Source of the DNA: a bacterium
GTDB lineage: Bacteria; Patescibacteriota; Minisyncoccia; Moranbacterales; UBA2206
Length of the DNA: 64,000 bases
Assembly (NCBI GenBank): GCA_030654225.1
Contig: JAURXY010000026.1
Span: 10,448-74,447 of the forward strand
Direction: 5' to 3'
The position numbers and the translations under genes were made by a program. The stretch's first letter is position 1. Every line of letters starts with the position of its first letter. The notes under the pieces are model-generated. The model worked only from the letters and a program-made list of their open reading frames with translations. It ran no database searches and was not told the origin of the DNA. Shown here one piece after another: positions 6,249-55,450 of the stretch.

Positions 6249-7700
6249 CTATCTCTCCAAATCCAACACTTCATCAATCCTAATTTGCGAAACGAATTCG
6301 GGGACGTGGCTCACGAGAATCATAGCGCCTTCGAAGGAATTCAAGGCTTTGGCGATGATGGGCAGATGGCGAAAGTTGATGTGGTTGGTTGGTTCGTCTA
6401 GGATCAAAAGCCCCGGTTCTTCGAGCATAAGACGAGCAAAAGCCACCAGACCTTTTTGTCCTTCAGAAAGTGAACCGATTTTGGCGTCGATAATGGTTTT
6501 GTCGATGAGAAAACCGGAAGCCACAGAGCGCATTCGTTCTTCATCTTCATTTCGCATAACAGCAAAAAGGGAATTGCGCACGGTATCTTCAAAATTGAGA
6601 GTGGAAAAATCCTGGCGGTAATATCCCACGCGAATGCCTTCGGTAATTTTTGCGCCCTTAGCAGATCCTGTGGCGAGAGATTCAAGTAGGGTGCTTTTGC
6701 CAATGCCGTTTGGTCCGGCGAGGAGTAGATGAGTTTTTTTCTTGAGAGAAATTTTGACTTTCTTTATTTCCGGTTCATGATTTTTCATCACCGTGAGTGA
6801 AGAAATGTTTATTATCTCTCCAATTAATCCATCCTGGACTGGAATTTCAAAATCACGAATAGCTTTGTCTTCACGCCTAACATCCACTTTCGCTTCTTCC
6901 ATCTCTTCAGCTTTGTCGCGCATCTTTCGGGCCACGAGTCGCATCTTGCCACCCTTGTTAGCAAAGAAGTTGGCTTTTTCTTTATTAGCAATGATTTCTT
7001 TTTCATATTGGGCGTTTTTCATTTTTTCTTTTTCAATTCGATCGGCAATTTCCGCTACCACGACATAATAGTCGCCGAGATATTGTTCAACTTTGTGGGT
7101 GAAGATGTCGAGATAGAGCACGCCGTCGGTAAAAGAATTTAAAAAGTCCGCATCATGAGAAATCACGATGCAAGTTTTGTTGTAGCTCATCAAAAATTGC
7201 GTGAGATGTTCAATGCCGGCTTTGTCTAAATTATTCGTTGGTTCATCTAGAATCAAAAGATCCGGATCTTGAATCAACGCCGAAGCTAAAAGCAGGCGGG
7301 CTTGTTGTCCGCCGGAAAAAGATTTGACTATTTTGTCATGTGGAGCTTTCAAGTTTACAAGGTCTAGTACCTTGTCAATTTTTGGATCAAGATTATATAA
7401 TTTCTCAGTGAAACATTTAGCAAAAAATTCTTTGACAGTAAGTGTCATTTGTTCGGCCGGAATAACTTGTTTGGCATAAGCAATTTTGAGAGTGGGATTG
7501 ACATAGATGGAACCATCTTCTTCTTTCAAGGATCCTGTAATCAAATTCAAAATAGTCGATTTTCCAGCGCCATTTTGTCCCATAATAGTGATTTTAGTGC
7601 CTTGCCTGAGCGAAAAAGAAGCCTCATCGAGGATGGGTTTTTTGTGTCCGTATTCAAAAGAAACTTTGTTAAATCTAACTGCAACGTCGTCTTTGGCCAT
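6249..7700 (-). CDS. ABC-F family ATPase (translation factor-type; two ABC domains, no TMD)
   Basis: two Walker A (GQNGAGKST, GPNGIGKST), two LSGGQ-like signatures, two Walker B LILDEPTN. Confidence 0.85.
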   Translation of the reverse strand: MAKDDVAVRFNKVSFEYGHKKPILDEASFSLRQGTKITIMGQNGAGKSTILNLITGSLKEEDGSIYVNPTLKIAYAKQVIPAEQMTLTVKEFFAKCFTEKLYNLDPKIDKVLDLVNLKAPHDKIVKSFSGGQQARLLLASALIQDPDLLILDEPTNNLDKAGIEHLTQFLMSYNKTCIVISHDADFLNSFTDGVLYLDIFTHKVEQYLGDYYVVVAEIADRIEKEKMKNAQYEKEIIANKEKANFFANKGGKMRLVARKMRDKAEEMEEAKVDVRREDKAIRDFEIPVQDGLIGEIINISSLTVMKNHEPEIKKVKISLKKKTHLLLAGPNGIGKSTLLESLATGSAKGAKITEGIRVGYYRQDFSTLNFEDTVRNSLFAVMRNEDEERMRSVASGFLIDKTIIDAKIGSLSEGQKGLVAFARLMLEEPGLLILDEPTNHINFRHLPIIAKALNSFEGAMILVSHVPEFVSQIRIDEVLDLER

Positions 7701-7864
7701 AGTGTTTCGAAAAAAATTAAACTAATAAAAAAGCATTGAGTTTTCATTCTAGCGCATTTTTGAAAATTTGGGAAGAGCACTGACACTAAAAACATCCTTT
7801 TGAAATATAATTCTATTGTTGTTGTACTATATCAAGTAGTTCAGTAAGCACTAATATATCAACT

Positions 7865-8062
7865 ATGACAACTAAAGAAAATCAAAGATTAACAATCTTC
7901 ATCAACCCTTATCTGGCTAAACAAGCGAAAGCGCAAGCTATTGTTGAGGAAATAAGTCTCACTAGCCTAATAGAGAAGGCTCTGATTGAATATTTGCCCA
8001 AAGAAACAATAATTAAAAAGATCGAAATTAGTAAAAATAGAAAGGTGGTGAAAACAATATGA
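7865..8062 (+). CDS. small ribbon-helix-helix-like protein
   Basis: 65 aa; N-terminal beta-strand then two helices; 4-nt overlap (ATGA) with next gene. Confidence 0.35.
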   Translation: MTTKENQRLTIFINPYLAKQAKAQAIVEEISLTSLIEKALIEYLPKETIIKKIEISKNRKVVKTI

Positions 8063-21971: not shown

Positions 21972-22943
21972 ATGAAAAATAAATTAACTTTTATTGAAGA
22001 AGAAAATAAACTAATTCCGAATAGAATAATTGAAGAGCTAGGAATTAAGAATAATCAACAAATATATTTTGAAAAGGAATCAGAATCATTAAAAGTTTTT
22101 GAAATTGTTAATAAATTGCTCGGACCTCGTGGGTTTGAGGAATTTTCCGCCGGCCAGTTTAAAGCAATAGCGGGAGGATCATTAAACTGCTCAAATAAAA
22201 TTAAAAACTATGCAACTGGGAAAGGGGCTATCTCTAAGGGTTTTACTTATATCGCAGACATTATCAAATATTGCCAGATTTGTATTGATAATTCAGTCTT
22301 GATTCCTTTGGAAAGTATAATAGAAGAATTCGAGTGGGCGAAAAAAGCTATAAATGAGGGATATATTACATTACATTCGAATGGGAAGATGAGATATGAT
22401 ATTGAAGCAATTATGGATATAACAAAAGGTTTATTGGTGGAAGTTGCATTTAAAATTGATAGTGAGAGAAAAAATATAGAAATCGAATTGAATAGAGATT
22501 TTTTTACTGGGACAAGTAATACTGATGAGGGTCAAGATATCAAGCGGATAAAATTTACTGGTGATGTTTTTATATCTCCTCGGATAAAAGTACAAATTAA
22601 GGATACTCAATATTTTATACTTATTTCAGAAAATGAATTTAATGGGCCAAGAAAAGCAGAACTTTTTATTTCATATAAAGTACATTGGAAAAAAGCCAAT
22701 ACGGGGCAAAGATTTTTTAGAAGTCTTGGTGGAAGGGGCGAGCATATATTTTCCGATTTTCCAGTTCTTAAGGGAATACGAGCCGAAAGGAGAGGATGGG
22801 CGTTAAGAGAAGATTTTAAGGAATTAAAAAAGTTTAATAAATATAAAGGAAAATCTTTTAATAATGATAATATGTATGTTTATTGGGATGATTTGCGCGA
22901 TTTGAATGATCTTTTTTCAAAATTAAAAAATCTTATTGCTTAA
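21972..22943 (+). CDS. hypothetical protein; candidate restriction endonuclease/effector partner of the LexA-MTase
   Basis: no known motif; 3-prime end overlaps the convergent MTase gene by 11 nt. Confidence 0.45.
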   Translation: MKNKLTFIEEENKLIPNRIIEELGIKNNQQIYFEKESESLKVFEIVNKLLGPRGFEEFSAGQFKAIAGGSLNCSNKIKNYATGKGAISKGFTYIADIIKYCQICIDNSVLIPLESIIEEFEWAKKAINEGYITLHSNGKMRYDIEAIMDITKGLLVEVAFKIDSERKNIEIELNRDFFTGTSNTDEGQDIKRIKFTGDVFISPRIKVQIKDTQYFILISENEFNGPRKAELFISYKVHWKKANTGQRFFRSLGGRGEHIFSDFPVLKGIRAERRGWALREDFKELKKFNKYKGKSFNNDNMYVYWDDLRDLNDLFSKLKNLIA

Positions 22944-24507
22944 TCGCTTTCATAATTTGTTTTGCTACGGCCGTAACCACAGGGACACTCACAGAATTTC
23001 CAGCTTGCTTGTATAGTGAAGAGTCAGCCAAGTTTTTTGGCAGGATAAATGTTTTTGGAAATCCTTGTAGCCTAAAACATTCAAGAGGAGTCAGTTTTCT
23101 GATTCCTTTTTTGTCTTTTATAATTGGAACATTATGTCCACCCGTTCCCATATTAGCAGTGAGAGTTGGACACACGCCTTTTTTGTTTTCCCTCACATAT
23201 TGTCTTCTCCATTGATAAACTTTTCCTCCTTCATTTACAAAATCCTTAAGTTTTTCAAAGAGTGGTTTGTCGTTATAATAATATTTTTTGTCCACATTTT
23301 TTTCCAAAAGGTCAGTGACTCTTAGTTTCAATTCTTGTGGCTCTGGAAATTCAAATTTATCTGAATAATCTTTATTCTTAAATCCGACTATATAAATTCT
23401 TTCTCGGTTTTGTGGAACATTACCATACTCCATAGTGTTTAAAACTTTAGTTTTCACATGATAGCCCAAATCTTCTAGTGTCTGGATGATTATACTAAAA
23501 GTTTTCCCGTTGTCATGACCTTTGAGATTTTTTACATTTTCCAAAAGAAATCCTTCGGGCTTTCTAGCTTCCAAAATTCTTGCAACATCAAAAAACAAAT
23601 TTCCCCGATCTTTTTCATCATTAAATCCTTTGCGATATCCTGCGATTGAAAATGCTTGGCAAGGAAAACCGCCCAAGAGAAAATCAAATTTTGGTAAATC
23701 ATCAATTTCAATTTTTCTCATATCTTCCACGATAAGTTTTGATTTTTTGAAATTCAAATCATAAGTGTTCTTGCAATATTTATCAAAATCATTTGCAAAA
23801 ACTGTTTCAAATCCTGCATTTTCAAAACCTAATCTTATACCTCCAACTCCGGCAAATAAATCTAAGGTTCTAAATAATTTTTGTTTTGAGTCGCTAGGGG
23901 TATTCTCTAAATTTCTTTTTATCTCAATAACCACCCCTCTAATCTCAACTTCTTTCCTATATATCGGCAACATTGTTTGATTGGCTGGTTGAAGTCGGAA
24001 TCTATTTTTCTCTCGGTATATTTTTTTCAAAGTGGCTTCATTGTCATCAATTATCGCGACCACTGTCTGGCCATTTTCTGCCGAAGATTGTTTTTTTATA
24101 ACCACAATGTCACCATCGAAAATTCCTTCATCAATCATGCTCGTACCCCTAACTTCGAGAGCATAATATTGTTCATCTTTTTTTATATTACCCGAAGCAA
24201 TCATCACGCTTTCTCCTATTGTTTCTATGGCTTCGATTGGCTGACCGGCAACTATTACTCCAACTAATGGAATTTTTATAAGGCTATATGGATTTTTCTT
24301 TTTCAATTCGATCCCTCTAGCTGAACTTCCATTTCTTTCGATGAATTCTTTTTTCTCCAATGCTTCTAAGTGTTGGTGAATAGTTGAAGGAGCGGAGAGT
24401 TTGAAATGTTTTCTAATTTCTTCGATAGTAGGGGATAGCCTTTTTTTATTTATATAAGATTTGATAAAATCTAGTATTTGTTTTTGTTTTTTTGTGAGAG
24501 TGGACAT
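22933..24507 (-). CDS. fusion of full LexA-like repressor (wHTH + S24 peptidase) and DNA (cytosine-5)-methyltransferase
   Basis: N-term wHTH; VAG-Q cleavage site; S24 Ser (GTSM) and Lys (ATLKK) 38 aa apart; then MTase motifs I DLFAGVGG, IV GFPCQAFS, VI ENV, VIII QNRERIYIVG, X GNSVSVPV. Confidence 0.85.
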   Translation of the reverse strand: MSTLTKKQKQILDFIKSYINKKRLSPTIEEIRKHFKLSAPSTIHQHLEALEKKEFIERNGSSARGIELKKKNPYSLIKIPLVGVIVAGQPIEAIETIGESVMIASGNIKKDEQYYALEVRGTSMIDEGIFDGDIVVIKKQSSAENGQTVVAIIDDNEATLKKIYREKNRFRLQPANQTMLPIYRKEVEIRGVVIEIKRNLENTPSDSKQKLFRTLDLFAGVGGIRLGFENAGFETVFANDFDKYCKNTYDLNFKKSKLIVEDMRKIEIDDLPKFDFLLGGFPCQAFSIAGYRKGFNDEKDRGNLFFDVARILEARKPEGFLLENVKNLKGHDNGKTFSIIIQTLEDLGYHVKTKVLNTMEYGNVPQNRERIYIVGFKNKDYSDKFEFPEPQELKLRVTDLLEKNVDKKYYYNDKPLFEKLKDFVNEGGKVYQWRRQYVRENKKGVCPTLTANMGTGGHNVPIIKDKKGIRKLTPLECFRLQGFPKTFILPKNLADSSLYKQAGNSVSVPVVTAVAKQIMKAIKQ

Positions 24508-24810
24508 ATAATTGACGCAGGATATTATTTTGTTATAATTCTATTATACCGAAAAAAAACCGAACTAGCAAAAGCGAGTTATCCACAGCACGACCCTTTG
24601 AATATTTTAAGTAAAACTAATTTTTTGTTCAGCGACATGCTAAGTAACACTTTTTTTATTAGAACTGGTTCTTGGAAAGCTTGTCGGGAATAGGGTATAG
24701 AATAAGCAACAGCTATTGACATAATAAACTCAATCAATTAAGATTATTTTACTGGGTAATTTCGAAACCCTAGTCGTTTCGTTTTTTTAATTTAATGATT
24801 TTTATTTTAT

Positions 24811-25230
24811 ATGCCAACGATAAATCAACTCAAGAGAAAACCAAGAAAAACTACCGAGAATAAAAGCAAAACGCCAGCTTTTAAATATGTCTTTAACACT
24901 ATTCAAAACAGACCAACAGATACGGCTGGTCCATTTAAGCGGGGAGTGTGCATCAAGGTTTCCACTACTACTCCAAAAAAACCAAACTCAGCTCTGCGAA
25001 AAATTGCCCGAGTTCGTCTCACAAACGGAATGGAAGTAACGGCCTATATCCCTGGAATCGGACATAACTTGCAAGAGCATTCTATTGTGATGATTCGCGG
25101 AGGTCGCGTTAAGGATCTTCCAGGAGTGCGTTATCATATAGTGAGAGGTGTGCTGGACACTGCCGGAGCAGCTAACCGAAAACAAGGCCGATCAAAATAT
25201 GGAGCAAAAAGAGAAAAAGCTAAAGAATAA
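24811..25230 (+). CDS. rpsL: 30S ribosomal protein S12
   Basis: MPTINQL ... strong family match. Confidence 0.95.
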
Positions 25231-25354
25231 TTGAAAATCTTTACGAATTACTAATCAAATACTAATATACGAATAATATTTATAAGTTGAGAGAATTTTT
25301 TTAGTTTACATTAGTATATTCGTACTTAATTCGTAATTAGTAAAGAATAAGTTT

Positions 25355-25822
25355 ATGGCAAGAAGAAAAAGAATTTATCAAAAAAATACTAAACCTGATC
25401 CAAAGTATAACAACATACTAGTTGGAAAATTTATGGTGAGCATCATGGAAAGCGGAAAGAAAACTATTGCAGAAAAAATAATGTATGATTCTTTTGATAT
25501 CATTCACGAAAGAACAAAAAAGGGTGGTTTGAATATTTTTGAACAAGCTATTAAGAATGTTTCTCCTTTGGTGGAATTGAAATCCCGCCGAGTTGGAGGT
25601 GCTAACTATCAGGTGCCTGTTCCCGTAGCAGGAGACAGAAGAACAACTTTGGCTATTCGTTGGTTAAAAGTAGCTATTAATGCGAAAAAAGGCAAGAAAA
25701 TGGCAGAAAAATTGGCTGATGAACTAATTGATGCTTCCAACAAAATTGGCGGAGCTATGAAAAAACGAGAAGATGTTCATCGAATGGCTGATGCTAATAA
25801 GGCTTTTGCGCACTTCGCTTAA
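25355..25822 (+). CDS. rpsG: 30S ribosomal protein S7
   Basis: family match, 155 aa. Confidence 0.95.
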   Translation: MARRKRIYQKNTKPDPKYNNILVGKFMVSIMESGKKTIAEKIMYDSFDIIHERTKKGGLNIFEQAIKNVSPLVELKSRRVGGANYQVPVPVAGDRRTTLAIRWLKVAINAKKGKKMAEKLADELIDASNKIGGAMKKREDVHRMADANKAFAHFA

Positions 25823-25924
25823 TTTACGAAAGTACGAATCTGGCGAAATTACGAATTCGTATTTTCGTTTAATTCGTATATTCGTAAATTATAAATAAAA
25901 TTAAGAAAGTAAAAATCAAATTAT

Positions 25925-28015
25925 ATGGCTCGAGAATACCCAATCGAAAAATATCGCAATATCGGAATTATCGCTCATATTGATGCTGGAAAAACCACCA
26001 CCACGGAGCGTGTTTTGTTTTATACCGGTATCACTCACAAAATTGGTGAAGTGCATGAAGGCGCTGCAACGATGGACTGGATGGAACAAGAAAAAGAACG
26101 AGGAATTACCATCACTTCAGCCGCGACAACTTGTTTTTGGAAAGATCATCAAATTAATATTATCGATACTCCGGGACATGTGGACTTTACCGTGGAAGTG
26201 GAAAGATCGCTTCGTGTTTTGGACGGTGGTGTGGTAGTTTTTGATGGCAAGGAAGGTGTGGAACCACAATCAGAAACAGTTTGGCGACAAGCAGAAAAAT
26301 ATAAGGTGCCGAGAATTTGTTTTATCAATAAAATTGACAAAGAAGGTGCTGATTTTTATTACGCTCTAAAAACTATTTGGGACAGACTTACTCCAAACGC
26401 GGTAGCTGTGCAACTTCCGATTGGAGAGCGAGGAGATTTTTCTGGCGTGGTGGATTTGATTAAAATGAAAGCTTATACTTTTTCTGGAGAGATGGGAGAA
26501 ATTGTCAATGAAGAAGAAGTTCCAGCTGACATGCTCGAAAAATCCAAAGAGTGGCGAGAAAAAATGGTAGAAAAAATTTCTGAAACTGATGACGCGCTCA
26601 CAGAAAAATTTTTAAACGGTGAAGAAATTTCGCAAGCGGAACTAAAATCGGCTCTTCGCAAAGGAGTCAACGCCGTGACGCTCGTTCCAGTTTTCACAGG
26701 CACTGCTCTTCGAAACAAGGGAGTGCAATTAGTGCTAGATGCGGTAGTGGATTATCTGCCATCCCCAATTGATGTTCCAGCAATCAAAGCAACGGAAGTT
26801 GATGATGAAACTAAAGAAGTAGCCATTAAATATGATGACAGCGCTCCTTTTTCTGCTTTGGCTTTCAAAGTAGCTACTGATCCATTTGTCGGTCAACTAA
26901 CTTTCTTTAGAGTCTATAGCGGAATGCTCAAAGCCGGTTCTTATGTTTTGAATTCTTCTAAAGGAGAAAAAGAAAGAGTGGGCCGAATTCTGCGAATGCA
27001 TGCTAATCATCGAGAAGAAATTGACGAAATTTATACTGGAGGAATCGGAGCGCTTGTTGGAATGAAAAATACTACTACAGGAGACACTTTGTGTGATCCA
27101 GAAAATCCAGTTTTACTGGAAAAAATAACTTTTCCAGAACCAGTTATCTCAATCGCCGTGGAACCAAAAACTAAAGCTGATCAAGAAAAGATGGGAATGG
27201 CTCTTAGAAAATTAGCCGAAGAAGATCCAACTTTCAAAATTAGAACTGATGAAGAAACGGCTCAGACTATTATCTCCGGAATGGGCGAATTACATCTCGA
27301 TATTATCGTGGATCGAATGAAAAGAGAATTCAAAGTTGAAGCTAATATCGGTCAGCCACAAGTAGCTTATCGAGAAACAATTAAATCCAACGCCCAAGCG
27401 GAAGGAAAATATATCAAACAATCAGGTGGACGCGGACAATATGGCCACTGTTGGATCAAAGTGGAACCGCAAGAAGCTGGCAAAGGATTTGAATTCGTGG
27501 ATGAAATCAAGGGTGGCTCTATCCCGCAAGAATATATTGCTCCGATTGGCAAAGGAATCAAAGAGGCGATGGACAACGGAGTTTTGGCGGGGTATCCAAT
27601 GGTGGACATCAAGGCCACTGTATATGACGGATCTTTTCATGATGTTGACTCCTCAGAGGCAGCCTTTAGAATCGCTGGTTCAATGGCTTTCAAAGAAGCT
27701 TCTCGTCGGGCCAACCCAATTATCATGGAACCGATTATGAAAGTAGTGGTGACGACCCCAGAGAATTTTATGGGGGATGTGGTGGGAGATTTGAACTCCA
27801 AGCGAGGTATCATCAAAGAAATGAATGATCGCGGAGAAGGCAATGCGCGAGTAAAAGAAATTGACGCCGAAGCCCCACTTTCTTCAATGTTTGGTTATGC
27901 CACTCAACTTCGCTCAATGACCCAAGGTCGCGCCAACTATGTGATGGAATTTTCCCACTACGCCGAAGTGCCGAAGAATGTGGCGGAAGGAATTATTAGT
28001 GGGGATAAGAAATAA
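25925..28015 (+). CDS. fusA: elongation factor G
   Basis: G-domain [17 protein letters not shown]; 696 aa. Confidence 0.95.
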
Positions 28016-28024
28016 AATATAGGA

Positions 28025-28070
28025 AACAAATTTAAATTCAGTAGAGACGAGGCACTGCCTCGTCTTTTTC
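28025..28070 (+). terminator. fusA terminator / REP-like hairpin (copy 1 of 46-bp direct repeat)
   Basis: GTAGAGACGAGGCACTGCCTCGTCTTTTT; near-identical at 29026-29072. Confidence 0.75.
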
Positions 28071-28133
28071 TTATGGCAATATGTTTTTTAATTTGGCTTG
28101 CAAATTGGGCTAAAATATGATATAATGTAAGAT

Positions 28134-28364
28134 ATGATAAAGTTTCGTCAGGCATTATTTTGGGATACTAATCCAAAGAATATAGATACAGAGAAAAACG
28201 CTCAATATATCATTGAACGCGTTTTGGATTTTGGCAATGATAGAGAGGTAAAATGGCTTTATAATTTCTACGATAAATCGTTGTTAAAAAAAGTTGTCGC
28301 TAAGTCTCGTTCGCTAATGCCAGAAACAAAAAATTTATGGATAATGCTTCTAGAAAGCAAATAG
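28134..28364 (+). CDS. small protein upstream of AbiEii-family toxin (putative antitoxin partner)
   Basis: 76 aa; overlaps toxin start; recalled similarity to partners of DUF1814 toxins. Confidence 0.4.
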   Translation: MIKFRQALFWDTNPKNIDTEKNAQYIIERVLDFGNDREVKWLYNFYDKSLLKKVVAKSRSLMPETKNLWIMLLESK

Positions 28365-29014
28365 AATATAATTTTAGTATTATACCTGCAAAAACAAAAA
28401 AAGCGTTTGTTTTTTTGTCTGGACAAAATTGGCTTAGCGAAAGCGGATGGTATTTGGCTGGTGGAACTGCGCTGGCATTGCAAACAGGGAATCGCAAGTC
28501 AGTGGATTTGGATTTTTTTACCGTAGAAAAAGATTTTGATAAATCAGAATTGCTTGAAAATTTTTCAGAAAATAAAGAATGGAAAACTACCCTAAATAGA
28601 AAAAATACCGTTTATGGCGAACTGTCTAAGGCCAAAATAAGTTTTATCGCTTATCCTTTTTTTGTTCCTAAACAAGAATTTATCCAATATGGTTCGATTA
28701 AAATTTTGCAACCGCGCGATATTGCCGTAATGAAAATTATCGCCATTTCACAACGCGGACGCAAGCGTGATTTTTTTGATCTGTATTGGTGTGCAAAAAA
28801 TGTGGAATCATTAGAAGATTTGATAATAAGATTGAAAGTGCAATATCCTTTTGTGGCACACGATTATCATCATATTTTGAAAAGTTTAGTTTATTTTCAA
28901 GACGCAGAAAATGATCCACTGCCAGATATCACTTTTAAGGCGGATTGGAAAGAAATTAAGGATTATTTTAAAAAAGAAATTTTACGCATTACCAAAAAAA
29001 TAATCTTAAAATAG
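28337..29014 (+). CDS. nucleotidyltransferase AbiEii/AbiGii-family toxin (DUF1814)
   Basis: LAGGTALALQTGNRKSVDLDFF signature. Confidence 0.75.
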   Translation: MDNASRKQIEYNFSIIPAKTKKAFVFLSGQNWLSESGWYLAGGTALALQTGNRKSVDLDFFTVEKDFDKSELLENFSENKEWKTTLNRKNTVYGELSKAKISFIAYPFFVPKQEFIQYGSIKILQPRDIAVMKIIAISQRGRKRDFFDLYWCAKNVESLEDLIIRLKVQYPFVAHDYHHILKSLVYFQDAENDPLPDITFKADWKEIKDYFKKEILRITKKIILK

Positions 29015-29025
29015 AAAAAGCATTA

Positions 29026-29072
29026 AACAAATTTAAATTCCGTAGAGACGAGGCACTGCCTCGTCTTTTTTG
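29026..29072 (+). terminator. REP-like terminator hairpin (copy 2 of direct repeat)
   Basis: same hairpin and flanks as 28025-28070. Confidence 0.7.
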
Positions 29073-29171
29073 TGGCAAGGATTGCTTTTTTGATTGGGAT
29101 GTGCTTGTATGATGATAAGTTATTTTAACAAAAATTTTATCAACGCATAAAATATATATAAGGGGGAAATT

Positions 29172-29477
29172 ATGAAAAAATTCACGGTTAACATGATAAG
29201 AAAAACTCCCGACTTTTCGGAGGTTATAAATTGTTTTTCAAGCCAAGAGCGAAAATATTATTGTCATGAAATAGATAAATTAAGAGTGACATTTTTCGAC
29301 TATGGTTTGATTGAAGTCTTTATCATGAAAGTAAATCCAGCAGGGCCGGATGTAGCTAGAATAAGCTTGATTGGTTATGACGGATATGATGGGCTCCCAA
29401 TTTGGGATGTGAGAGGAGTGTTCAGAATGATTATGAAAGAGGTAATCGAAAAAATTTCGATGCCAAACTTACTATAA
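29172..29477 (+). CDS. hypothetical protein (strong SD)
   Basis: AAGGGGGAAATT-ATG. Confidence 0.4.
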   Translation: MKKFTVNMIRKTPDFSEVINCFSSQERKYYCHEIDKLRVTFFDYGLIEVFIMKVNPAGPDVARISLIGYDGYDGLPIWDVRGVFRMIMKEVIEKISMPNLL

Positions 29478-29493
29478 TTTTAAGGAGGTAGCC

Positions 29494-29691
29494 ATGAAAA
29501 AAAAGGGAATAAATCCAGAAATTGAAGCGGAAGAAAAAGTAACTACTGAAATTAAGCAGTTTCTTGAAGAAAAAGGAATTTTTGAGAAAATCAACCTGCG
29601 TGTAAAAAAACATATCGCACATCTCGGATTGACTGATTTTGAGGAAGACAATTTTATTCGCAAATGCTTCCACGAAGCATTGCATTATTAA
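29494..29691 (+). CDS. hypothetical small protein (strong SD)
   Basis: TAAGGAGGTAGCC-ATG. Confidence 0.4.
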   Translation: MKKKGINPEIEAEEKVTTEIKQFLEEKGIFEKINLRVKKHIAHLGLTDFEEDNFIRKCFHEALHY

Positions 29692-29805
29692 CTGTGTTAC
29701 CAGGCATTCCCCTTCTCTCATTTACGCATTGGCGTGATAGAGAGGCGGGGATTTTTTATTTGTCGCAAAAATTGTGGTAAAATATTTTATATAAAATTGT
29801 AGGCG

Positions 29806-29833
29806 GTAGAGACGCAAAATTTTGCGTCTCTAC
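29806..29833. repeat. 28-bp perfect palindrome GTAGAGACGCAAAATTTTGCGTCTCTAC (REP-like), copy 1, 25 bp upstream of RAYT gene
   Basis: exact copies at 30147-30174 and 54579-54606. Confidence 0.9.
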
Positions 29834-29858
29834 GATGTGATATAATACAAAAATAAAA

Positions 29859-30416
29859 ATGTCAGAATTATTCAAAAACAAATACACAATTAAATCATCC
29901 AGATTATCAAATTATGATTATTCTCAAAATGGAATGTACTTCGTTACGATTTGCACGAAAGACAAGGAATATTTTTTTGGGGAGGTGAAAAATGGGGGAA
30001 TGGTGTTGAATGATGTGGGGAAAATGGCAGATAAATATTGGCGCGAAATTCCAGCGCATTTTCCATTTGTAAGATTAGATGAATTTGTTGTAATGCCCAA
30101 TCATGTGCATGGGATTGTGGAAATTGCAAAAAACATTGATGCTAGCGTAGAGACGCAAAATTTTGCGTCTCTACAGGGCGAAAGGGGAAATAAATTTGGT
30201 CCACAATCAAAAAATTTAGCCTCTATAATTCGTGGTTTTAAGGTGGGGGTAAAAAAATATACAACAAAAAATGAAATTTATTTCCAATGGCAACCCCGTT
30301 ATTACGACCAAATAATTCGAAACGAAATTTCCCTAAACAAAATTCGTGAATATATCCAAATTAATCCGCAGATGTGGGAAAGAGATAAAAACAGTTTAGA
30401 AAATATATTTATGTAA
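29859..30416 (+). CDS. REP-associated tyrosine transposase (RAYT) / IS200-like HuH transposase
   Basis: HuH motif MPNHVHGIV; C-terminal EYIQINP and RYYDQ Tyr region; contains in-frame REP copy 2. Confidence 0.7.
   Translation: MSELFKNKYTIKSSRLSNYDYSQNGMYFVTICTKDKEYFFGEVKNGGMVLNDVGKMADKYWREIPAHFPFVRLDEFVVMPNHVHGIVEIAKNIDASVETQNFASLQGERGNKFGPQSKNLASIIRGFKVGVKKYTTKNEIYFQWQPRYYDQIIRNEISLNKIREYIQINPQMWERDKNSLENIFM
30147..30174. repeat. REP-like 28-bp palindrome copy 2, in-frame inside RAYT ORF (encodes SVETQNFASLQ)
   Basis: exact palindrome. Confidence 0.9.
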
Positions 30417-30478
30417 TTTTCCATTGACATCCAATTTTAAATAAGTTAGCATTAATTTATCAAGTTAAAATAAAATTT

Positions 30479-30757
30479 ATGTTAGACAAAAAACTCAAAG
30501 AAGCGCTTGATCTCTTGGGAGGAAAAGCGGTGATAAAAGACCAAGAACAATATTATGTGATTCTCAGCCTTTTGGAATTTAAGAAAATAAAGAAAGAAGG
30601 CATAGAAGGCTTGACAAAACAAGAATTGGTTGATAAAATCAATAATGATATAGCAAGCTGGAAAGTGATCCAAGAAGAGGAAAAAATTGAAGATATGGAT
30701 CTTAGCGAAATGAGTGAAGCGAAAAGTGAGGAAATACGCTATGAAAAGACGCAGTAG
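30479..30757 (+). CDS. hypothetical protein
   Basis: 92 aa ORF; acidic C-terminus. Confidence 0.35.
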   Translation: MLDKKLKEALDLLGGKAVIKDQEQYYVILSLLEFKKIKKEGIEGLTKQELVDKINNDIASWKVIQEEEKIEDMDLSEMSEAKSEEIRYEKTQ

Positions 30758-30931
30758 GTCTTATCCACAGCAATAAATATACGGGGGACTTGCCAAAATA
30801 ATAAAAGTGTATTAAACTAAATTTTGTAATATATAACTTAATAAAAAATCGCGACTAATTGCGAATCCGGTATTTATTCCGGAATTTTCCGCTCTGGCGG
30901 GGAATGCAAAAATCGCGCCAAAATTAAAACT

Positions 30932-32125
30932 ATGGCAGCAGAAAAATTTGAAAGAACTAAACCTCATGTTAACGTCGGAACTATCGGCCACGTTGATCAT
31001 GGCAAAACCACTTTGACAGCGGCTATTCTTCATGTCTTGGCTTTCAAGGGACAAGCTAAGGAAAAAGGAATTGATGAAATTGACAAAGCTCCAGAAGAGA
31101 AAGAACGAGGGATTACCATCGCTACTGCTCATTGTGAATATGAAACTGAAAAGAGACATTATGCTCATGTTGACTGCCCAGGACATGCTGACTATATCAA
31201 AAATATGATCACAGGTGCAGCTCAAATGGATGGCGCGATTATCGTTGTAGCAGCTACTGATGGTCCTATGCCTCAGACTCGAGAACACATTCTTCTTGCT
31301 AATCAGGTGGGTGTTTCTGAAATAGTAGTATTTTTGAACAAAGTTGATATGGTGGACGATCCAGAATTGGTTGATCTAGTTGAAGCAGAAATCCGAGAAC
31401 TTCTCACTAAGTATGAATTTGATGGAGAAAATGCCAAGGTTATTCGTGGATCAGCTTTGAAAGCCCTTGAATCAAAATCAGCTGACGACGAAGCTGCTAA
31501 ACCAATCTTTGAACTTATGGCCGCATTGGATGAAAAAATTCCTGAGCCAGTGAGAGAAACAGAAAAAGATTTCCTTATGCCAATTGAAGATATTTTCTCC
31601 ATTGAAGGCCGAGGAACAGTAGTGACCGGAAGAATTGAAAGAGGTACAATCAACATCAATACTGAAGTTGAAATTGTGGGAATTCGTCCAACGCAAAAAA
31701 CTATTGTTACAGGAATTGAAATGTTCAACAAATCTCTTGATAGCGGACAAGCGGGAGATAATGCCGGAGTATTGCTTCGTGGAACTAAAAAGGAAGATGT
31801 AGAGCGAGGCCAAGTTTTGGCAAAACCAGGATCAATTACCCCACACACTGAATTTAACGGCGAAGTTTACATTTTGACCAAAGAAGAAGGCGGAAGACAC
31901 ACTCCATTTTTCAAAGGCTACAAACCTCAATTCTATATCCGAACAACTGATGTGACTGGAGAAGTGGTGCTACCGGAAGGAACTGAAATGGTTATGCCGG
32001 GAGACACAGTGAGTTTTGAAGTTAAATTAGGAGCACCCGTAGCTATGGAAGAAGGAATGCGATTTGCTATTCGAGAAGGCGGAAAGACTGTTGGTGCTGG
32101 AGTGGTGACAAAAATTATAAAATAA
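30932..32125 (+). CDS. tuf: elongation factor Tu
   Basis: [21 protein letters not shown]. Confidence 0.95.
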
Positions 32126-32230
32126 AGTATGCGAATAGCGCGCTACGAATGCGCACATGCGAATTGCTCCGAATTTTTTCGTAGATTCGTGTTCATTCGT
32201 AGTTTCGCATCGGATATTATTAAAAACTAA

Positions 32231-32557
32231 ATGTTGAAGGTAGTAGACGAAGTAAAACCAAGAATTAGGATTAAGATTAAGGCGTATGATCATAAGATTA
32301 TTGATCAATCAGCTAAACTTATCGTTGAAACAGCCCAGAGATCAGGCGCAAGTATTGCCGGACCAGTGCCTTTGCCTACCGAAATAAGAAGGTACACTGT
32401 TAACAAATCAACATTTGTTCATAAAGATTCTCGTGATCAATATGAAATGAGAATTCACAAAAGATTAATTGATATAATTAGCCCAACTCCAAAAACGATT
32501 GATAGTCTCACTAATCTAGATTTGCCAGCAGGAGTAGATGTGGAGATAAAAATGTAA
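32231..32557 (+). CDS. rpsJ: 30S ribosomal protein S10
   Basis: family match. Confidence 0.9.
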
Positions 32558-32771
32558 AATATTTCTAGTTAAAGTCTGTACCTGCCAAATTTTCTTACTT
32601 TGTTATATTATTCTCCAACTAAGGATAATGATTATCTGACCCAAACAGTTGAGGATATATAATAAGATAGGAAAATTAGGCAGGCGAGATACTCAACTAG
32701 CCAAGAAAGAAATTTCTATAAACTCGAAAGAGTTTCGGCTGGTAATGACCAGTTTTTATTTTTATAAAAAA

Positions 32772-54354: not shown

Positions 54355-54435
54355 AAACGGGAATCTAGTCATAAAAATGTTTTTATCGCGATAAATTTAA
54401 TTTCTACACTAGATCCCCGCATTCGCGAGGATGAC
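54342..54435. mobile_element. MITE-like element A2 (TIRs GTCATTCCCGTGAAAACGGGAATCTAGT / ACTAGATCCCCGCATTCGCGAGGATGAC)
   Basis: same architecture as 44343-44462; lies between hypD and hypE, overlapping the hypD stop. Confidence 0.65.
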
Positions 54436-54442
54436 AAACTTT

Positions 54443-55450
54443 ATGAATAAAATAATTGAATTAGAAATGGGCGGAGGAGGAAAAAAATCGGAAGAACTTA
54501 TTGGAAACATAAGGAAAATTTTGAATGTTCGTGGAAAATGGAAAAACACTAAGGATGATGGGGCGGTTTTTGACTTGAGTAGAGACGCAAAATTTTGCGT
54601 CTCTACGGGGGGTAATAAGTTGGTGTTTACCACCGATGCTTTTATTGTTGACCCACTGTTTTTTCCGGGAGGGGATATTGGAAAAATTGCGATTTGCGGA
54701 ACGTTAAATGATCTTTCGGTTATGGGCGCTAAGCCGATTGGAATTTCACTCAGTATTGTAATCGAAGAAGGATTTTTGCAAAACGATTTGGAAAAAATAA
54801 TTCAGTCTATAAATAAAATTTCGAAAGTTACAGGCGTTCCGATTGTGACGGGGGACACAAAGGTGACAGAAAAAGGCAAGATAGATAAAATTGAAATTAC
54901 CACTTCGGGAGTAGGGCTCGCTTCAAAAATAATTTCTAATGATGGCGCAAAAGTGGGGGATGATATAATCGTTTCTGGCGATCTTGGTGAGCACGCAGTA
55001 GCGCTTTTGGCCAAGAGATTTAACTATCAAACAAAAATAAAAAGCGATTGTCAACCGCTCATTGCCGAAATTCAAAGTGTAGCTAAATATCTTACTTCTT
55101 GCAAGGATCCAACGCGTGGCGGACTGTCCGCTGTGCTAAATGAAATGGCGGAAAAATCCAAAACTAAATTTGTTTTAGATGAAAAAAATTTACCATTTAA
55201 AAAAGAAACTGTGGCAATTTCAGAACTTCTTGGCATTGATTTTTTTTCTTTTCCATCAGAAGGAAGGTTTGTGGCGACAGTGGCGAGAAAAAATTCCAAG
55301 AGAGTTGTTGAAATTTTGAAAAAATATAATAAATCTGCTAGAATAATTGGAGAAGTGCAAAGGGGCAAAGAAGTTTGGCTGAAAACCAAAATTGGATCTG
55401 TCAAAAAAATTGAAGTGCCAAGAGGAAAATTAATTCCACGGATTTGCTAA
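54443..55450 (+). CDS. hypE: hydrogenase maturation factor HypE
   Basis: DPLFFPGGDIGKIAICGTLNDL; contains in-frame REP-like palindrome. Confidence 0.85.
   Translation: MNKIIELEMGGGGKKSEELIGNIRKILNVRGKWKNTKDDGAVFDLSRDAKFCVSTGGNKLVFTTDAFIVDPLFFPGGDIGKIAICGTLNDLSVMGAKPIGISLSIVIEEGFLQNDLEKIIQSINKISKVTGVPIVTGDTKVTEKGKIDKIEITTSGVGLASKIISNDGAKVGDDIIVSGDLGEHAVALLAKRFNYQTKIKSDCQPLIAEIQSVAKYLTSCKDPTRGGLSAVLNEMAEKSKTKFVLDEKNLPFKKETVAISELLGIDFFSFPSEGRFVATVARKNSKRVVEILKKYNKSARIIGEVQRGKEVWLKTKIGSVKKIEVPRGKLIPRIC
54579..54606. repeat. REP-like 28-bp palindrome copy 3, in-frame inside hypE (encodes RDAKFCVST)
   Basis: exact copy of 29806-29833. Confidence 0.9.

Follow-up and report, generated by a model that had tools for sequence, protein, structure and literature searches.

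Core defence hotspots have been described in E. coli and Pseudomonas, the CIMEs and ICEs of streptococci are cis-mobilisable elements whose att repeats lie at gene 3' ends, and insertion-duplication is known in competent bacteria. Hotspots of horizontal gene transfer were reportedly described by Oliveira and colleagues in 2017. REPtrons, in which GTAG REPs accompany RAYT genes, have been reported in several studies (Nunvar 2010, PMC2817692; Bertels & Rainey 2011, PMC3116915; Di Nocera 2013, PMC3733652). The last of these already places REPs just downstream of coding regions, where they were proposed to work as transcribed RNA or post-transcriptional elements, and describes overlaps of REPs with the RAYT ORF at its 5' or 3' end only. 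In the part of that article devoted to Ton-Hoang et al. 2012, REP DNA is said to be cut and rejoined by RAYTs in vitro, and REP intermediates of circular form are proposed.

We focused on the interval between fusA and tuf in an ultra-small Candidatus Moranbacteria bacterium (CPR/Patescibacteria; genome of ~1 Mb), within a stretch of 64,000 nucleotides that is referred to here as the window. Its EF-G matches that of a MAG at 100% and those of Moranbacteria relatives at 97-99%. All the sequence features named in a first-pass annotation (genes, hairpin repeats, palindromes and a DnaA box) are present (Table 1). That annotation had proposed a 2.9-kb accessory island bounded by hairpins; the hairpins enclose a TA module of 1 kb only, and the interval as a whole is accessory in part. 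Homology to the relatives examined (L001-L005, L044, L086 and L123-L125) resumes between ~30408 and 30419, where a conserved 92-aa ORF (ORF92), which always precedes tuf in relatives, is approached. A perfect TTATCCACA box of DnaA type lies downstream of it, at 30761, and its sequence is also conserved in relatives. All relatives retain ORF92, the DnaA-type box, and the promoter and leader of tuf; these are therefore core sequence and lie outside the island in which ORF92 and the box had been included, and the splitting of fusA and tuf by ORF92 is ancestral in the lineage of the window. The str cluster is arranged here as two transcription units, namely rpsL-rpsG-fusA, ending at a strong terminator, and a second unit with an ORF92 promoter and a separate tuf promoter and leader, as judged by predicted terminators and conserved predicted promoters.

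Table 1. Features between fusA and tuf, and a distant REP copy, in window coordinates.
Feature	Position	Strand	Basis or remark
fusA (EF-G)	25925-28015	+	ORF list; left core flank of variable slot
T1, direct-repeat copy 1	28024-28096	+	16-nt leader (AAACAAATTTAAATTC), GTAG-headed hairpin 28041-28065, U run, old-terminator relic
Sigma-70-like cassette promoter	28098-28126	+	TTGCAA-17-TATAAT, extended TG
DUF6922 ORF, 76 aa, presumed antitoxin	28134-28364	+	Pfam PF21956, E 8e-19
AbiEii/DUF1814-family nucleotidyltransferase, presumed toxin	28337-29014	+	Pfam PF08843, E 2.5e-18; PADLOC AbiEii
T2, direct-repeat copy 2	29025-29098	+	hairpin 29042-29066
Module 2: ORF101 (29172-29477) and ORF65 (29494-29691)	29172-29691	+	strong Shine-Dalgarno each
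Module 2 predicted intrinsic terminator, not a GTAG hairpin	29708-29751	+	-26.7 kcal/mol, z -5.9
GTAG REP, perfect 28-nt palindrome (GTAGAGACGCAAAATTTTGCGTCTCTAC)	29806-29833		25 nt upstream of RAYT start
RAYT-like Y1 HUH protein, variable module 3	29859-30416	+	motifs NHVHG and WQPRYYDQIIRN
Identical 28-nt REP inside RAYT ORF	30147-30174		encodes VETQNFASL
Right core flank: ORF92 promoter (30424-30452) and ORF92 (30479-30757)	30410-30757	+	homology
TTATCCACA box, tuf promoter (30790-30818) and structured tuf leader	30761-30931	+	conserved
tuf	30932-32125		gene 3' of interval
Third identical 28-nt REP, in-frame in hypE	54579-54606		sequence match

Comparison of relatives with EF-G 92-99% identical revealed at least eight haplotypes between the fusA terminator (hereafter T) and the ORF92 promoter, so the interval does not simply reflect a shared ancestral organisation. 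In all of them the left edge is T and the right edge is the ORF92 promoter (window ~30410). With these differences lying between fusA and the conserved ORF92, the variable slot is placed at about 28016-30415. Its contents in relatives include a Bro-N/phrog_8036 gene, an EcoRI-like methylase together with T5orf172, RhuM and GmrSD, an M24 peptidase and ORFs of unknown function, in slots of 0.2-5 kb (a 5-kb island in L005); none of the slot ORFs in any haplotype is an integrase. GC content is 31-34% in the slot and 40-46% in fusA, the low value being normal for non-core genes here. In the window, the two ORFs of module 2 gave no family match in profile searches; the corresponding position holds ORF89 in L002 and an unrelated ORF of ~77 aa in L086, and the module 2 terminator is conserved in both strains. 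Overall, the gap after fusA appears to be a slot in which strains swap small accessory and defence genes, an insulated recombination hotspot where modules made of promoter, gene and terminator would be gained, lost and exchanged.

The hairpin that follows fusA fits the criteria of an intrinsic terminator, being a GC-rich stem-loop with a U run at the 3' end of a gene, and it is kept after fusA in relatives; the T1 hairpin is thus the predicted fusA terminator. The segment of 73 nt that contains it is present twice, as T1 and T2, at a distance of 1001 bp and with only the TA module enclosed. A repeat search recovered 28006-28069 and 29007-29070 as 64 nt at 86%, and the gapped alignment of T1 with T2 scored 95, against 18.8 +/- 2.7 (maximum 32) for shuffles. 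Within a 45-nt core (AAACAAATTTAAATTC-N-GTAGAGACGAGGCACTGCCTCGTCTTTTT) the copies differ by one mismatch, and both fold into an 11-bp stem with a 3-nt loop and a run of 5-6 U (-16.8 kcal/mol; z -5.1 and -3.8). The first-pass annotation had rightly recognized a duplicated hairpin bracketing the TA module, and the repeat proves longer than it had claimed, extending ~30 nt beyond the T run across the relic of an older terminator, a type that is intact in L125.

The cassette between T1 and T2 has 1.0 kb and consists of the genes for DUF6922 and AbiEii, whose ORFs overlap by 28 nt. The AbiEii protein carries the motif GG...DLDFF and is matched by 14 PADLOC AbiEii models, and the duplicated fusA 3'UTR begins right at the stop codon of its gene (AAATAG). 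Pairing of DUF6922 with AbiEii was found in 20 of 22 metagenome loci, the other two (L146 and L147) being contigs cut inside AbiEii. The cassette shares with the AbiE type IV TA system (Dy et al. 2014, PMC3985639) a bicistronic overlapping operon with the AbiEii/DUF1814 nucleotidyltransferase in second place, but differs from it in the upstream partner, which is a 76-aa DUF6922 protein and not the winged-helix AbiEi (COG5340). No match to the AbiEi antitoxin was obtained for the upstream gene in Pfam, NCBIfam and PADLOC profile searches, and no mention of DUF6922 was found in the literature searched. In the pair designated earlier as an AbiEii-family TA pair, the TA partner is therefore DUF6922 and not the canonical AbiEi antitoxin. 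The cassette probably serves abortive infection or addiction, with a nucleotidyltransferase toxin and a small antitoxin as its parts.

Presence and absence of this module among relatives agree with the insertion footprint suggested in the first-pass annotation. In L086 the site is empty and holds one hairpin: window positions 27000-28093 and 29019-29172 map to overlapping stretches of its sequence that share one T. This T is preceded by sequence matching fusA and followed by sequence matching window 29019-29172, which fits the precise removal of an insert. Moreover, the same cassette follows fusA in two more distant lineages (L044/L127/L128 and L126), between two copies of the fusA 3'UTR that measure 80-150 nt and begin with the stop codon. 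Between the window and L126, dS is 0.87 for fusA and 1.14 for rpsG, compared to 0.23 for AbiEii and 0.34 for DUF6922, and amino-acid identity is 96-99% for the cassette and 92% for EF-G. With synonymous divergence 3-4 times lower than in its flanks, the cassette has therefore moved horizontally.

The junctions give further detail on how this may have happened. The last 100 nt of fusA are 96-100% identical to L002 and ~80% to the cassette-sharing L126, and the 3' coding end of the gene is native to the lineage of the window; both native/foreign switches therefore fall inside the duplicated element, where the crossover is placed by few polymorphisms, essentially one A/C site and the flank types. 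T1 has the same A just before GTAG as T1 of L126, and T2 has the native C. The 5' flank of T2 (TAGAAAAAGCAT) is of cassette type, resembling the cassette 3'UTR of L044 and L126, and its 3' flank is of native type, resembling the sequence after fusA in L002 and L086. Together, these flanks show the hybrid attL/attR pattern that would be expected from one crossover within the core. Homology to the L044 and L126 cassettes begins at the cassette promoter, and the spacer between T1 and this promoter differs between the window and these lineages; hence, either the donor was another lineage or deletions occurred later. In addition, a related TA pair located elsewhere, in L135, is flanked by a duplicated target segment of ~270 nt, in which the signature of insertion-duplication recurs.

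Based on these results, the balance of probability tips slightly towards integration of the cassette by a single crossover (Campbell-type) at the REP-derived terminator of an insulated hotspot. The cassette would have entered by recombination in the ~45-nt conserved core of the fusA 3'UTR (16-nt leader plus hairpin), most likely from a circular or circularised molecule, itself postulated, carrying one copy of the element, and the single crossover would leave the element duplicated on either side of the cassette. Recombination of T1 with T2 would excise the cassette and restore a single T, as in L086, and the excised circle could re-enter the conserved site in another lineage. RecA-type homologous recombination is the assumed enzymatic activity. 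It speaks against this route that a block of identity of 45 nt comes close to the minimum with which RecA recombines efficiently. Beside the Campbell-type route, REP-guided recombination may be named, with catalysis by the RAYT being possible.

This brings in the REP family to which T belongs. The window contains 8 occurrences of the motif GTAGAGACG, where 0.09 would be expected, and five REP elements are spread over the 64 kb; the copy in hypE shows that the family is dispersed in this genome. The 28-nt copies are short palindromes with a 5' GTAG head (GTAGAGACG...CGTCTCTAC); T keeps the GTAG head and the stem, and ends in TTTT in place of CTAC. The exact 25-mer of T was found at more than 115 loci (11 or more in one MAG), with 70 of 124 copies being full palindromes with unique flanks, and the RAYT-associated palindromes of the sister strain L002 equal this 25-mer plus CTAC, so that the relation of the hairpin to REPs is stronger than the 9-nt match from which it was first suspected. 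Thus, the fusA terminator is best regarded as a domesticated GTAG-type REP with a GTAGAGACG head, in which a T run replaces the 3' CTAC.

The RAYT-like ORF of the window scores 23.0 bits with Pfam Y1_Tnp, equal to the cutoff, and 57.3 bits with NCBIfam REP_Tyr_transpos, below the cutoff of 80; NHVHG and WQPRYYDQIIRN align, in a weak alignment, with the matching segments of E. coli TnpA-REP (PDB 4ER8). It belongs to a divergent clade of more than 3700 homologues, some of which are named RayT by JGI, and the literature searched yielded no paper linking RAYTs with CPR. L086 has the intact gene, whereas that of L002 breaks off exactly where the internal REP ends on its 3' side, and the other haplotypes lack it. 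REPs lie both ~50 nt upstream of and inside the RAYT homologues in the window, L002, L086, L068 and L106, and inside only in L053 and L072; the REP in the middle of the ORF is conserved across phyla.

Given such an enzyme, hairpin-specific recombination could be catalysed by the RAYT, as had been suggested earlier: a Y1 HUH protein would cut single-stranded DNA beside GTAG hairpins and rejoin it, and cassettes would be excised and inserted at T, the attachment site of an integron-like or IS200/IS605-like platform. The exact identity of T with the RAYT-associated REPs of L002 speaks in its favour, as do the intact RAYT with HUH and Tyr motifs in the same slot, the L002 RAYT broken at its internal REP, the crossover inferred within the 16 nt directly 5' of the hairpin, and the coincidence of GTAGAGACG hairpins with several boundaries between modules of relatives, such as the GTAGAGACGTAGCATTGCTACGTCT(5) at the end of the Bro-N gene. 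REPs are also mobile in the clade, with three identical window copies and variable in-frame insertions in hypE, and the cleavage and rejoining of REP DNA recounted in PMC3733652 would supply the chemistry. However, L044 has the duplicated insertion and no RAYT between fusA and ORF92, and L126 has none within the ~300 nt after the second copy, where its contig ends before reaching ORF92. Furthermore, the duplication begins at the stop codon, takes in all of the 3'UTR and stops ~30 nt beyond the T run, and its length differs by lineage (73 to ~150 nt); the junctions are therefore not at a fixed distance from the hairpin. The REP core of the window RAYT (CAAAATTTTG) also differs from that of T (AGGCACTGCCT), the 5-kb island of L005 is devoid of internal GTAG hairpins, module 2 ends in another type of terminator, and the L135 duplication lacks a GTAGAGACG...CGTCTCTAC GTAG REP. 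RAYT-mediated integration is accordingly not supported as proposed, and we regard it as rather unlikely. Its fullest form is quite unlikely: GTAG hairpins would be the recombination sites of the co-resident RAYT, the fusA terminator the attachment site of an integron-like CPR cassette platform, and the REP inside the RAYT ORF the master recognition site of the enzyme, kept palindromic by compensatory change across phyla. If true, RAYTs, whose cellular role is still unclear, would gain a concrete function in cassette capture.

The Campbell-type route leaves the first duplication unexplained, and here the AAATAG common to the ends of fusA and AbiEii hints at a microhomology event. An illegitimate, template-switching origin would account for it: replication or repair that copies through the fusA 3'UTR would switch to a foreign TA template and return at AAATAG, so that the 3'UTR is copied twice, and later spread would be ordinary double-crossover homologous recombination of the whole block. 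The right junction does lie exactly at this 6-nt identity in all three lineages, and the hairpin is a plausible site of polymerase stalling. Nevertheless, an AT-rich match of six nucleotides at a stop codon may arise by chance. In addition, cassette-like sequence in the window is limited to the T1-T2 interval and fusA has a native 3' end, so there is no sign of a block transferred by double crossover in the flanking genes. As an account of the locus as a whole, this origin has a small chance of being correct.

Vertical inheritance with differential loss is very unlikely and already disfavoured. Here, an ancestor would have had the TA cassette and the duplicated terminator, most lineages would have lost the cassette through recombination of one repeat with the other, and no horizontal transfer would be involved, which suits the presence of the cassette at the same site in three lineages and the ease of deletion between direct repeats, giving exactly the single-T site of L086. 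It is at odds with the low dS and the higher protein conservation of the cassette relative to fusA and rpsG in the same genome pair, with the absence of the cassette from all the closest relatives of the window (fusA 89-91% identical in nucleotides), and with the left junction that differs from L044 and L126. Lastly, a chimeric join caused by the repeated hairpin is extremely improbable, for even though the window is MAG sequence and contigs may be wrongly joined at short repeats, the order fusA-T-TA-T recurs in independent assemblies from NCBI, ENA and JGI (L044 from NCBI; L126, L127 and L128 from JGI) and the flanks are continuous with core genes on both sides.

When set against known systems, the slot resembles integrons in its small promoter-proximal or terminator-delimited cassettes, held in a fixed platform with hairpin-forming sites at their ends. 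In contrast to integrons, it has no IntI tyrosine recombinase, its cassettes have their own promoters, and 16-60 nt of the duplicated site are flank outside the hairpin; with no integrase in any haplotype and several cassette ends devoid of a hairpin, identity with an integron was rejected. IS200/IS605 elements (TnpA Y1) are similar in having a Y1 HUH enzyme near and alike sub-terminal hairpins in direct orientation at both ends of the segment, but they leave neither a hairpin at the empty site nor a target duplication, whereas in this case one hairpin remains at the empty site and the repeat extends over the whole 3'UTR; such an element was likewise rejected, as the repeat measures 73-150 nt and includes the stop codon. 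As in REPtrons, palindromes of 28-29 nt with a 5' GTAG head adjoin a single Y1 HUH gene, and the family has copies downstream of ORFs, some in-frame within genes, dispersed in many genomes. The differences are the CPR/Patescibacteria host, the low copy number (five elements in 64 kb), the REP in the middle of the RAYT ORF, and the T run that takes the place of the 3' CTAC in T. The likeness to Campbell insertion-duplication and CIMEs lies in the heterologous DNA between direct duplications of one contiguous piece of chromosome at the 3' end of a conserved gene, the one-copy empty site and the repeat copies with hybrid flanks, even though there is no integrase or recombination module here, the repeat is a REP-terminator and the element has only ~1 kb. 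Finally, the slot shares with integration and defence hotspots between core genes its sharp conserved core-gene borders, strain-specific contents and enrichment in defence-type genes (AbiEii, methylase, GmrSD, RhuM and a phage-family Bro-N gene), albeit with no integrase. It differs from them in its very small size, in its location within the str/S10 cluster of translation genes in a genome of ~1 Mb, and in that one of its borders, the REP-derived terminator, has been duplicated on both sides of a cassette. Altogether, it represents no new mechanism, but rather a solid example of known genome plasticity.

The EF-G encoded in the window, through which its relatives were found, was 100% identical to a protein from an uncultured-bacterium MAG, and 97-99% identical to those of several Candidatus Moranbacteria (Parcubacteria/CPR) genomes; an exact-sequence look-up of Tuf matched no record. 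The gene order is rpsL, rpsG, fusA, DUF6922, AbiEii, ORF101, ORF65, a RAYT-like ORF (REP-associated tyrosine transposase), ORF92, tuf, rpsJ, rplC and onward. The RAYT-like ORF scored 57 bits with the NCBIfam model REP_Tyr_transpos, under its 80-bit cutoff; an alignment with TnpA-REP of E. coli (PDB 4ER8) covers the HUH and Tyr segments of the protein. ORF101, ORF65 and ORF92 returned nothing credible in Pfam, NCBIfam, PADLOC or PHROGs. Rfam, run on 24400-32600, gave just two sub-threshold matches to microRNA models, both spurious and arising from a long, AT-rich, imperfect palindrome of TACGAA/TTCGTA units in the rpsG-fusA spacer. Relatives have additional ORFs here (277-293 aa in some, 96 aa in another), which makes the spacer a second small variable site of the str cluster. 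Divergent from rpsL lies the gene for a 524-aa protein in which a complete LexA (DNA-binding domain and S24 peptidase) is fused to a C-5 cytosine DNA methylase.

Positions of features in the window and in compared contigs or loci (L numbers), and content of the interval between fusA and ORF92 in relatives (T, fusA terminator hairpin with flanks)
Feature	Position	Remarks
LexA-methylase fusion gene	22933-24507 (-)	Pfam E 2e-18, 5e-29, 2e-96
rpsG-fusA spacer palindrome	25822-25890	
fusA	25925-28015	EF-G
Ungapped repeat	28006-28069 / 29007-29070	64 nt, 86%
T1 / T2 (gapped repeat)	28024-28096 / 29025-29098	
DUF6922 ORF	28134-28364	Pfam E 8e-19
AbiEii ORF	28337-29014	Pfam E 2.5e-18, 14 PADLOC AbiEii models
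ORF101	29172-29477	
ORF65	29494-29691	
RAYT-like ORF	29859-30416	Pfam Y1_Tnp at threshold
Palindrome within RAYT ORF	30147-30174	
ORF92	30479-30757	
TTATCCACA sites	30761-30769, 20592, 24579, 47394 (+); 50704 (-)	
tuf 5' leader	30836-30931	
tuf	30932-32125	
hypE	54431-55450	
REP in hypE	54579-54606	
Extra ORFs, rpsG-fusA spacer	L001-3 7063-7944; L122 1359-1649	
RAYT with mini-palindrome	L002 11740-11790, 12007-12035	
184-aa ORF	L004 4026-4645	
Direct duplication	L135 283-548 and 1620-1876	
Other intra-RAYT REP loci	L148 10277-10304; L149 gene 7242-7790	
Interval, L001-3		EF-G 98%: T, Bro-N/phrog_8036 gene, ORF89, N-terminal RAYT fragment, M24 peptidase fragment
Interval, L004		EF-G 97%: T, Bro-N remnant, ORF184
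Interval, L005		EF-G 97%: T, Bro-N, EcoRI-like methylase, T5orf172 protein, RhuM, GmrSD
Interval, L086		EF-G 98%: single T, 77-aa ORF, intact RAYT
Interval, L122		EF-G 99%: T, Bro-N-like gene, contig end
Interval, L044/L127/L128		EF-G 93%: T, DUF6922-AbiEii, T
Interval, L126		EF-G 92%: compound hairpin, DUF6922-AbiEii, compound hairpin
Interval, L123-125		EF-G 93%: different terminator, unknown ORF, full M24 peptidase

The first-pass annotation had described a duplicated terminator hairpin after fusA, and both repeat and alignment results confirmed that it is real. The gapped alignment of T1 and T2 scored 95, versus 18.8 +/- 2.7 for shuffles, with a single mismatch in a 45-nt core, and each copy folds into a hairpin (11-bp stem, 3-nt loop, -16.8 kcal/mol) with a U run behind it. 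GTAGAGACG occurs eight times in the window, versus 0.09 expected, these being the two hairpins and three identical, perfect 28-nt palindromes (GTAGAGACGCAAAATTTTGCGTCTCTAC) located upstream of RAYT, within the RAYT ORF and within hypE. The two terminator copies, 1001 bp apart, do bracket the TA pair, but not the full 2.9-kb interval, so that the extent originally given to the island was too large. Between stop codon and hairpin leader, the fusA/AbiEii 3'UTRs of L044, L126, L086 and L004 contain one to eight copies of a heptamer, (G/A)CATGAA, which is nearly absent at the window equivalents (28016-28024 and 29015-29025).

As judged from its sequence, the fusA terminator hairpin is a domesticated REP (a short, GTAG-headed palindrome). 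L002, a sister strain, has GTAGAGACGAGGCACTGCCTCGTCTCTAC as its palindromes both 5' of the RAYT gene and within it; this sequence corresponds to T with CTAC replacing the T run. Among the matches listed in a scan of species-representative genomes, the exact 25-mer of T was present in more than 115 loci, with many copies per MAG, and 70 of the 124 copies were full palindromes with unrelated flanks; these matches came from several CPR groups and from bins labelled, with uncertainty, Omnitrophota, Calditrichaceae, Saccharibacteria and Gammaproteobacteria, and the T-run version after fusA was, among them, specific to Moranbacteria relatives. L125 retains an older, unrelated fusA terminator, and in the window a degraded relic of it closely follows T, within both repeat copies. 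GTAG-tagged REPs, REPtrons, REPs just 3' of coding regions and intragenic REPs have already been described (PMC3733652, PMC2817692); our literature searches returned only primer sequences for GTAGAGACG, and no paper connecting RAYTs with CPR bacteria. The exact 28-nt REP of the window also occurs once in each of five IMG/VR contigs (L150-L154), with no RAYT homologue near it in the fetched stretches.

The corresponding intervals of relatives were taken from the contigs encoding the closest EF-G relatives and from two collection scans. ORF92 and its promoter stand directly upstream of tuf in every contig reaching that far, homology to the window returns at ~30408-30419 (L001-L005, L044, L086, L123-L125), and the TTATCCACA box after ORF92, the tuf promoter and its structured leader are also conserved. 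Since homology resumes at this point and these downstream elements are kept, the accessory region extends from 28016 to about 30415; it is composed of at least three modules varying independently, namely the TA pair, ORF101/ORF65 and RAYT. In this lineage, the separation of fusA and tuf by ORF92 is an ancestral trait. As fusA has its own predicted terminator, and ORF92 and tuf their own predicted promoters, the gap would be transcriptionally insulated, which would plausibly explain why insertions are tolerated in this slot. The right border of the core can accept an insertion too, as a 184-aa membrane-anchored ORF in L004 separates the start codon of ORF92 from its promoter and 5'UTR.

The reading of the duplication as an insertion footprint is well supported by an empty site, filled sites, dS values and hybrid flanks, and the TA cassette (the DUF6922 and AbiEii genes between T1 and T2) has, on this evidence, moved horizontally. 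L086 represents the empty site, as the regions of it that match window 27000-28093 and window 29019-29172 overlap, with one T in common. The closest relatives of the window are without the cassette, and two lineages that are more distant (L044/L127/L128; L126) carry the same cassette in the identical position. At the filled sites it lies between duplicated fusA 3'UTRs that start at the stop codon (AAATAG), with a local variant of the element. In the comparison of the window with L126, dS was 0.87 for fusA and 1.14 for rpsG, versus 0.23 for AbiEii and 0.34 for DUF6922, and the cassette proteins are 96-99% identical, compared with 92% for EF-G. The last 100 nt of the window fusA are of native type (96-100% identical to L002, about 80% to L126), and therefore both switches between native and foreign sequence fall inside the duplicated element. 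T2 combines a cassette-type 5' flank (TAGAAAAAGCAT) with a native 3' flank; an A just before GTAG is common to the T1 copies of the window and L126, while T2 has the native C. Neither AbiEii relatives nor copies of the T 25-mer were found in viral contigs, and no phage vehicle for the cassette was identified there.

As a route, we propose Campbell-type integration of a circle bearing one T copy: a single crossover inside the ~45-nt core would yield the hybrid flanks of T1 and T2, and the reverse recombination would restore a single-T site of the L086 type. What we infer here is the circle, the enzyme and how the first duplication arose; for the latter, the AAATAG identity (6 nt) at the right junction hints at microhomology as a possible source. 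Among 15 other DUF6922-AbiEii loci, flanking direct repeats were present only at the fusA-linked ones and at L135, and duplication is therefore not a general property of the cassette. L135 is an unrelated locus whose pair, 70% aa identical to that of the window, lies between two direct copies, 72-82% identical, of a ~270-nt segment spanning the 5' region of an acyltransferase-like gene.

A RAYT acting as the recombinase at T, the role originally suggested for it, is less likely and was overstated, since in L044, where the same insertion is duplicated likewise, the stretch from fusA to ORF92 contains no RAYT. The duplication, varying from 73 to ~150 nt, also covers the whole 3'UTR. The T sequence is identical to RAYT REPs and REP mobility is evident in the clade, but the REPs of the window RAYT itself differ from T in their core. 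Likewise, some module borders coincide with GTAGAGACG hairpins, yet the 5-kb island of L005 has no internal GTAG hairpins. The inferred crossover lies within 16 nt 5' of the hairpin, and the L002 RAYT is cut exactly at its internal REP; however, L126 shows no RAYT in the ~300 nt fetched beyond its second copy, and the related L135 pair has its acyltransferase-gene duplication without such a REP. Simple double-crossover block replacement was rejected because a tract of cassette-donor-like sequence was sought in the 3' part of fusA and none was found. The dS values run counter to a cassette inherited vertically and lost differentially, and the recurrence of the architecture in independent assemblies excludes an artefact.

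The REP in the middle of the RAYT ORF and the HypE loop are the most unusual observations beside the main finding. The former is a perfect GTAG palindrome between the HUH and Tyr motifs. VET....SL, mostly VETQNFASLQ, stands at its position in 87 of the 120 best RAYT homologues, from many phyla, the top matches being biased toward the query peptide. An Ignavibacteriota RAYT gene (66% nt identical overall) has exactly the same 28 nt, and in a Bacteroidales RAYT gene (GTCGAGACG...CGTCTCGAC) a compensatory double change keeps the palindrome and turns Leu into Arg. The intra-RAYT palindrome suggests that selection acts on the structure of the DNA or RNA, and its conservation provides a testable handle on RAYT recognition. 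The L002 RAYT contains, in addition, a 21-nt in-frame mini-palindrome that adds LPRRQAG; the gene stops precisely where its internal REP ends on the 3' side, and next to it lies part of an M24 peptidase gene, of which L123-125 have the complete form. In HypE, the 28-nt REP is in frame and encodes SRDAKFCVST. The same loop is empty in 47 of 120 homologues (DDGAVFDLGKEKLV), and the others hold at least five unrelated peptides encoded by small repeats (loop peptides: RDAKFCVST, RDAINRVST, VETPRRGVST, IPNPSPYKGEGG, KNLWTSNVHNGHSMST, TPTLSLKRRGG); different palindromic elements have inserted into this loop repeatedly.

Five perfect TTATCCACA sites, matching the DnaA-box consensus, occur in the 64 kb. 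The box after ORF92 was rejected as a sign of an island or origin, as it is conserved core sequence, kept in five relatives. Another site lies upstream of the rpsL promoter. Rather than marking an origin, these sites may serve as a motif in the regulation of translation genes. The tuf 5' leader has a conserved multi-stem fold retained in six lineages, with slight covariation in this narrow sample and no Rfam match.

Regarding function, the cassette would be an AbiE-like module for abortive infection or a toxin-antitoxin pair (PMC3985639), because its genes overlap, have their own predicted promoter, and the GG...DLDFF motif is intact in the AbiEii/DUF1814 nucleotidyltransferase. Although streamlined to ~1 Mb, this CPR genome keeps, amid its most conserved gene cluster, a defined and presumably insulated landing pad for exchangeable genes of the defence/addiction type, where a REP domesticated as an essential-gene terminator can double as a recombination site. 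The locus is a rare, well-resolved case of a cassette passing horizontally between lineages of Patescibacteria, combining dS evidence with one empty site and with filled sites from three lineages, and it extends GTAG-REP/RAYT systems to CPR bacteria. Our literature search returned no paper naming DUF6922. In contrast to the AbiE system, the partner is DUF6922 rather than AbiEi, so that the pair corresponds to AbiE proper in one half only. Altogether, the finding is a new example, in a CPR genome, of known phenomena: a core-gene-flanked hotspot, recombination at a REP and a mobile TA cassette.
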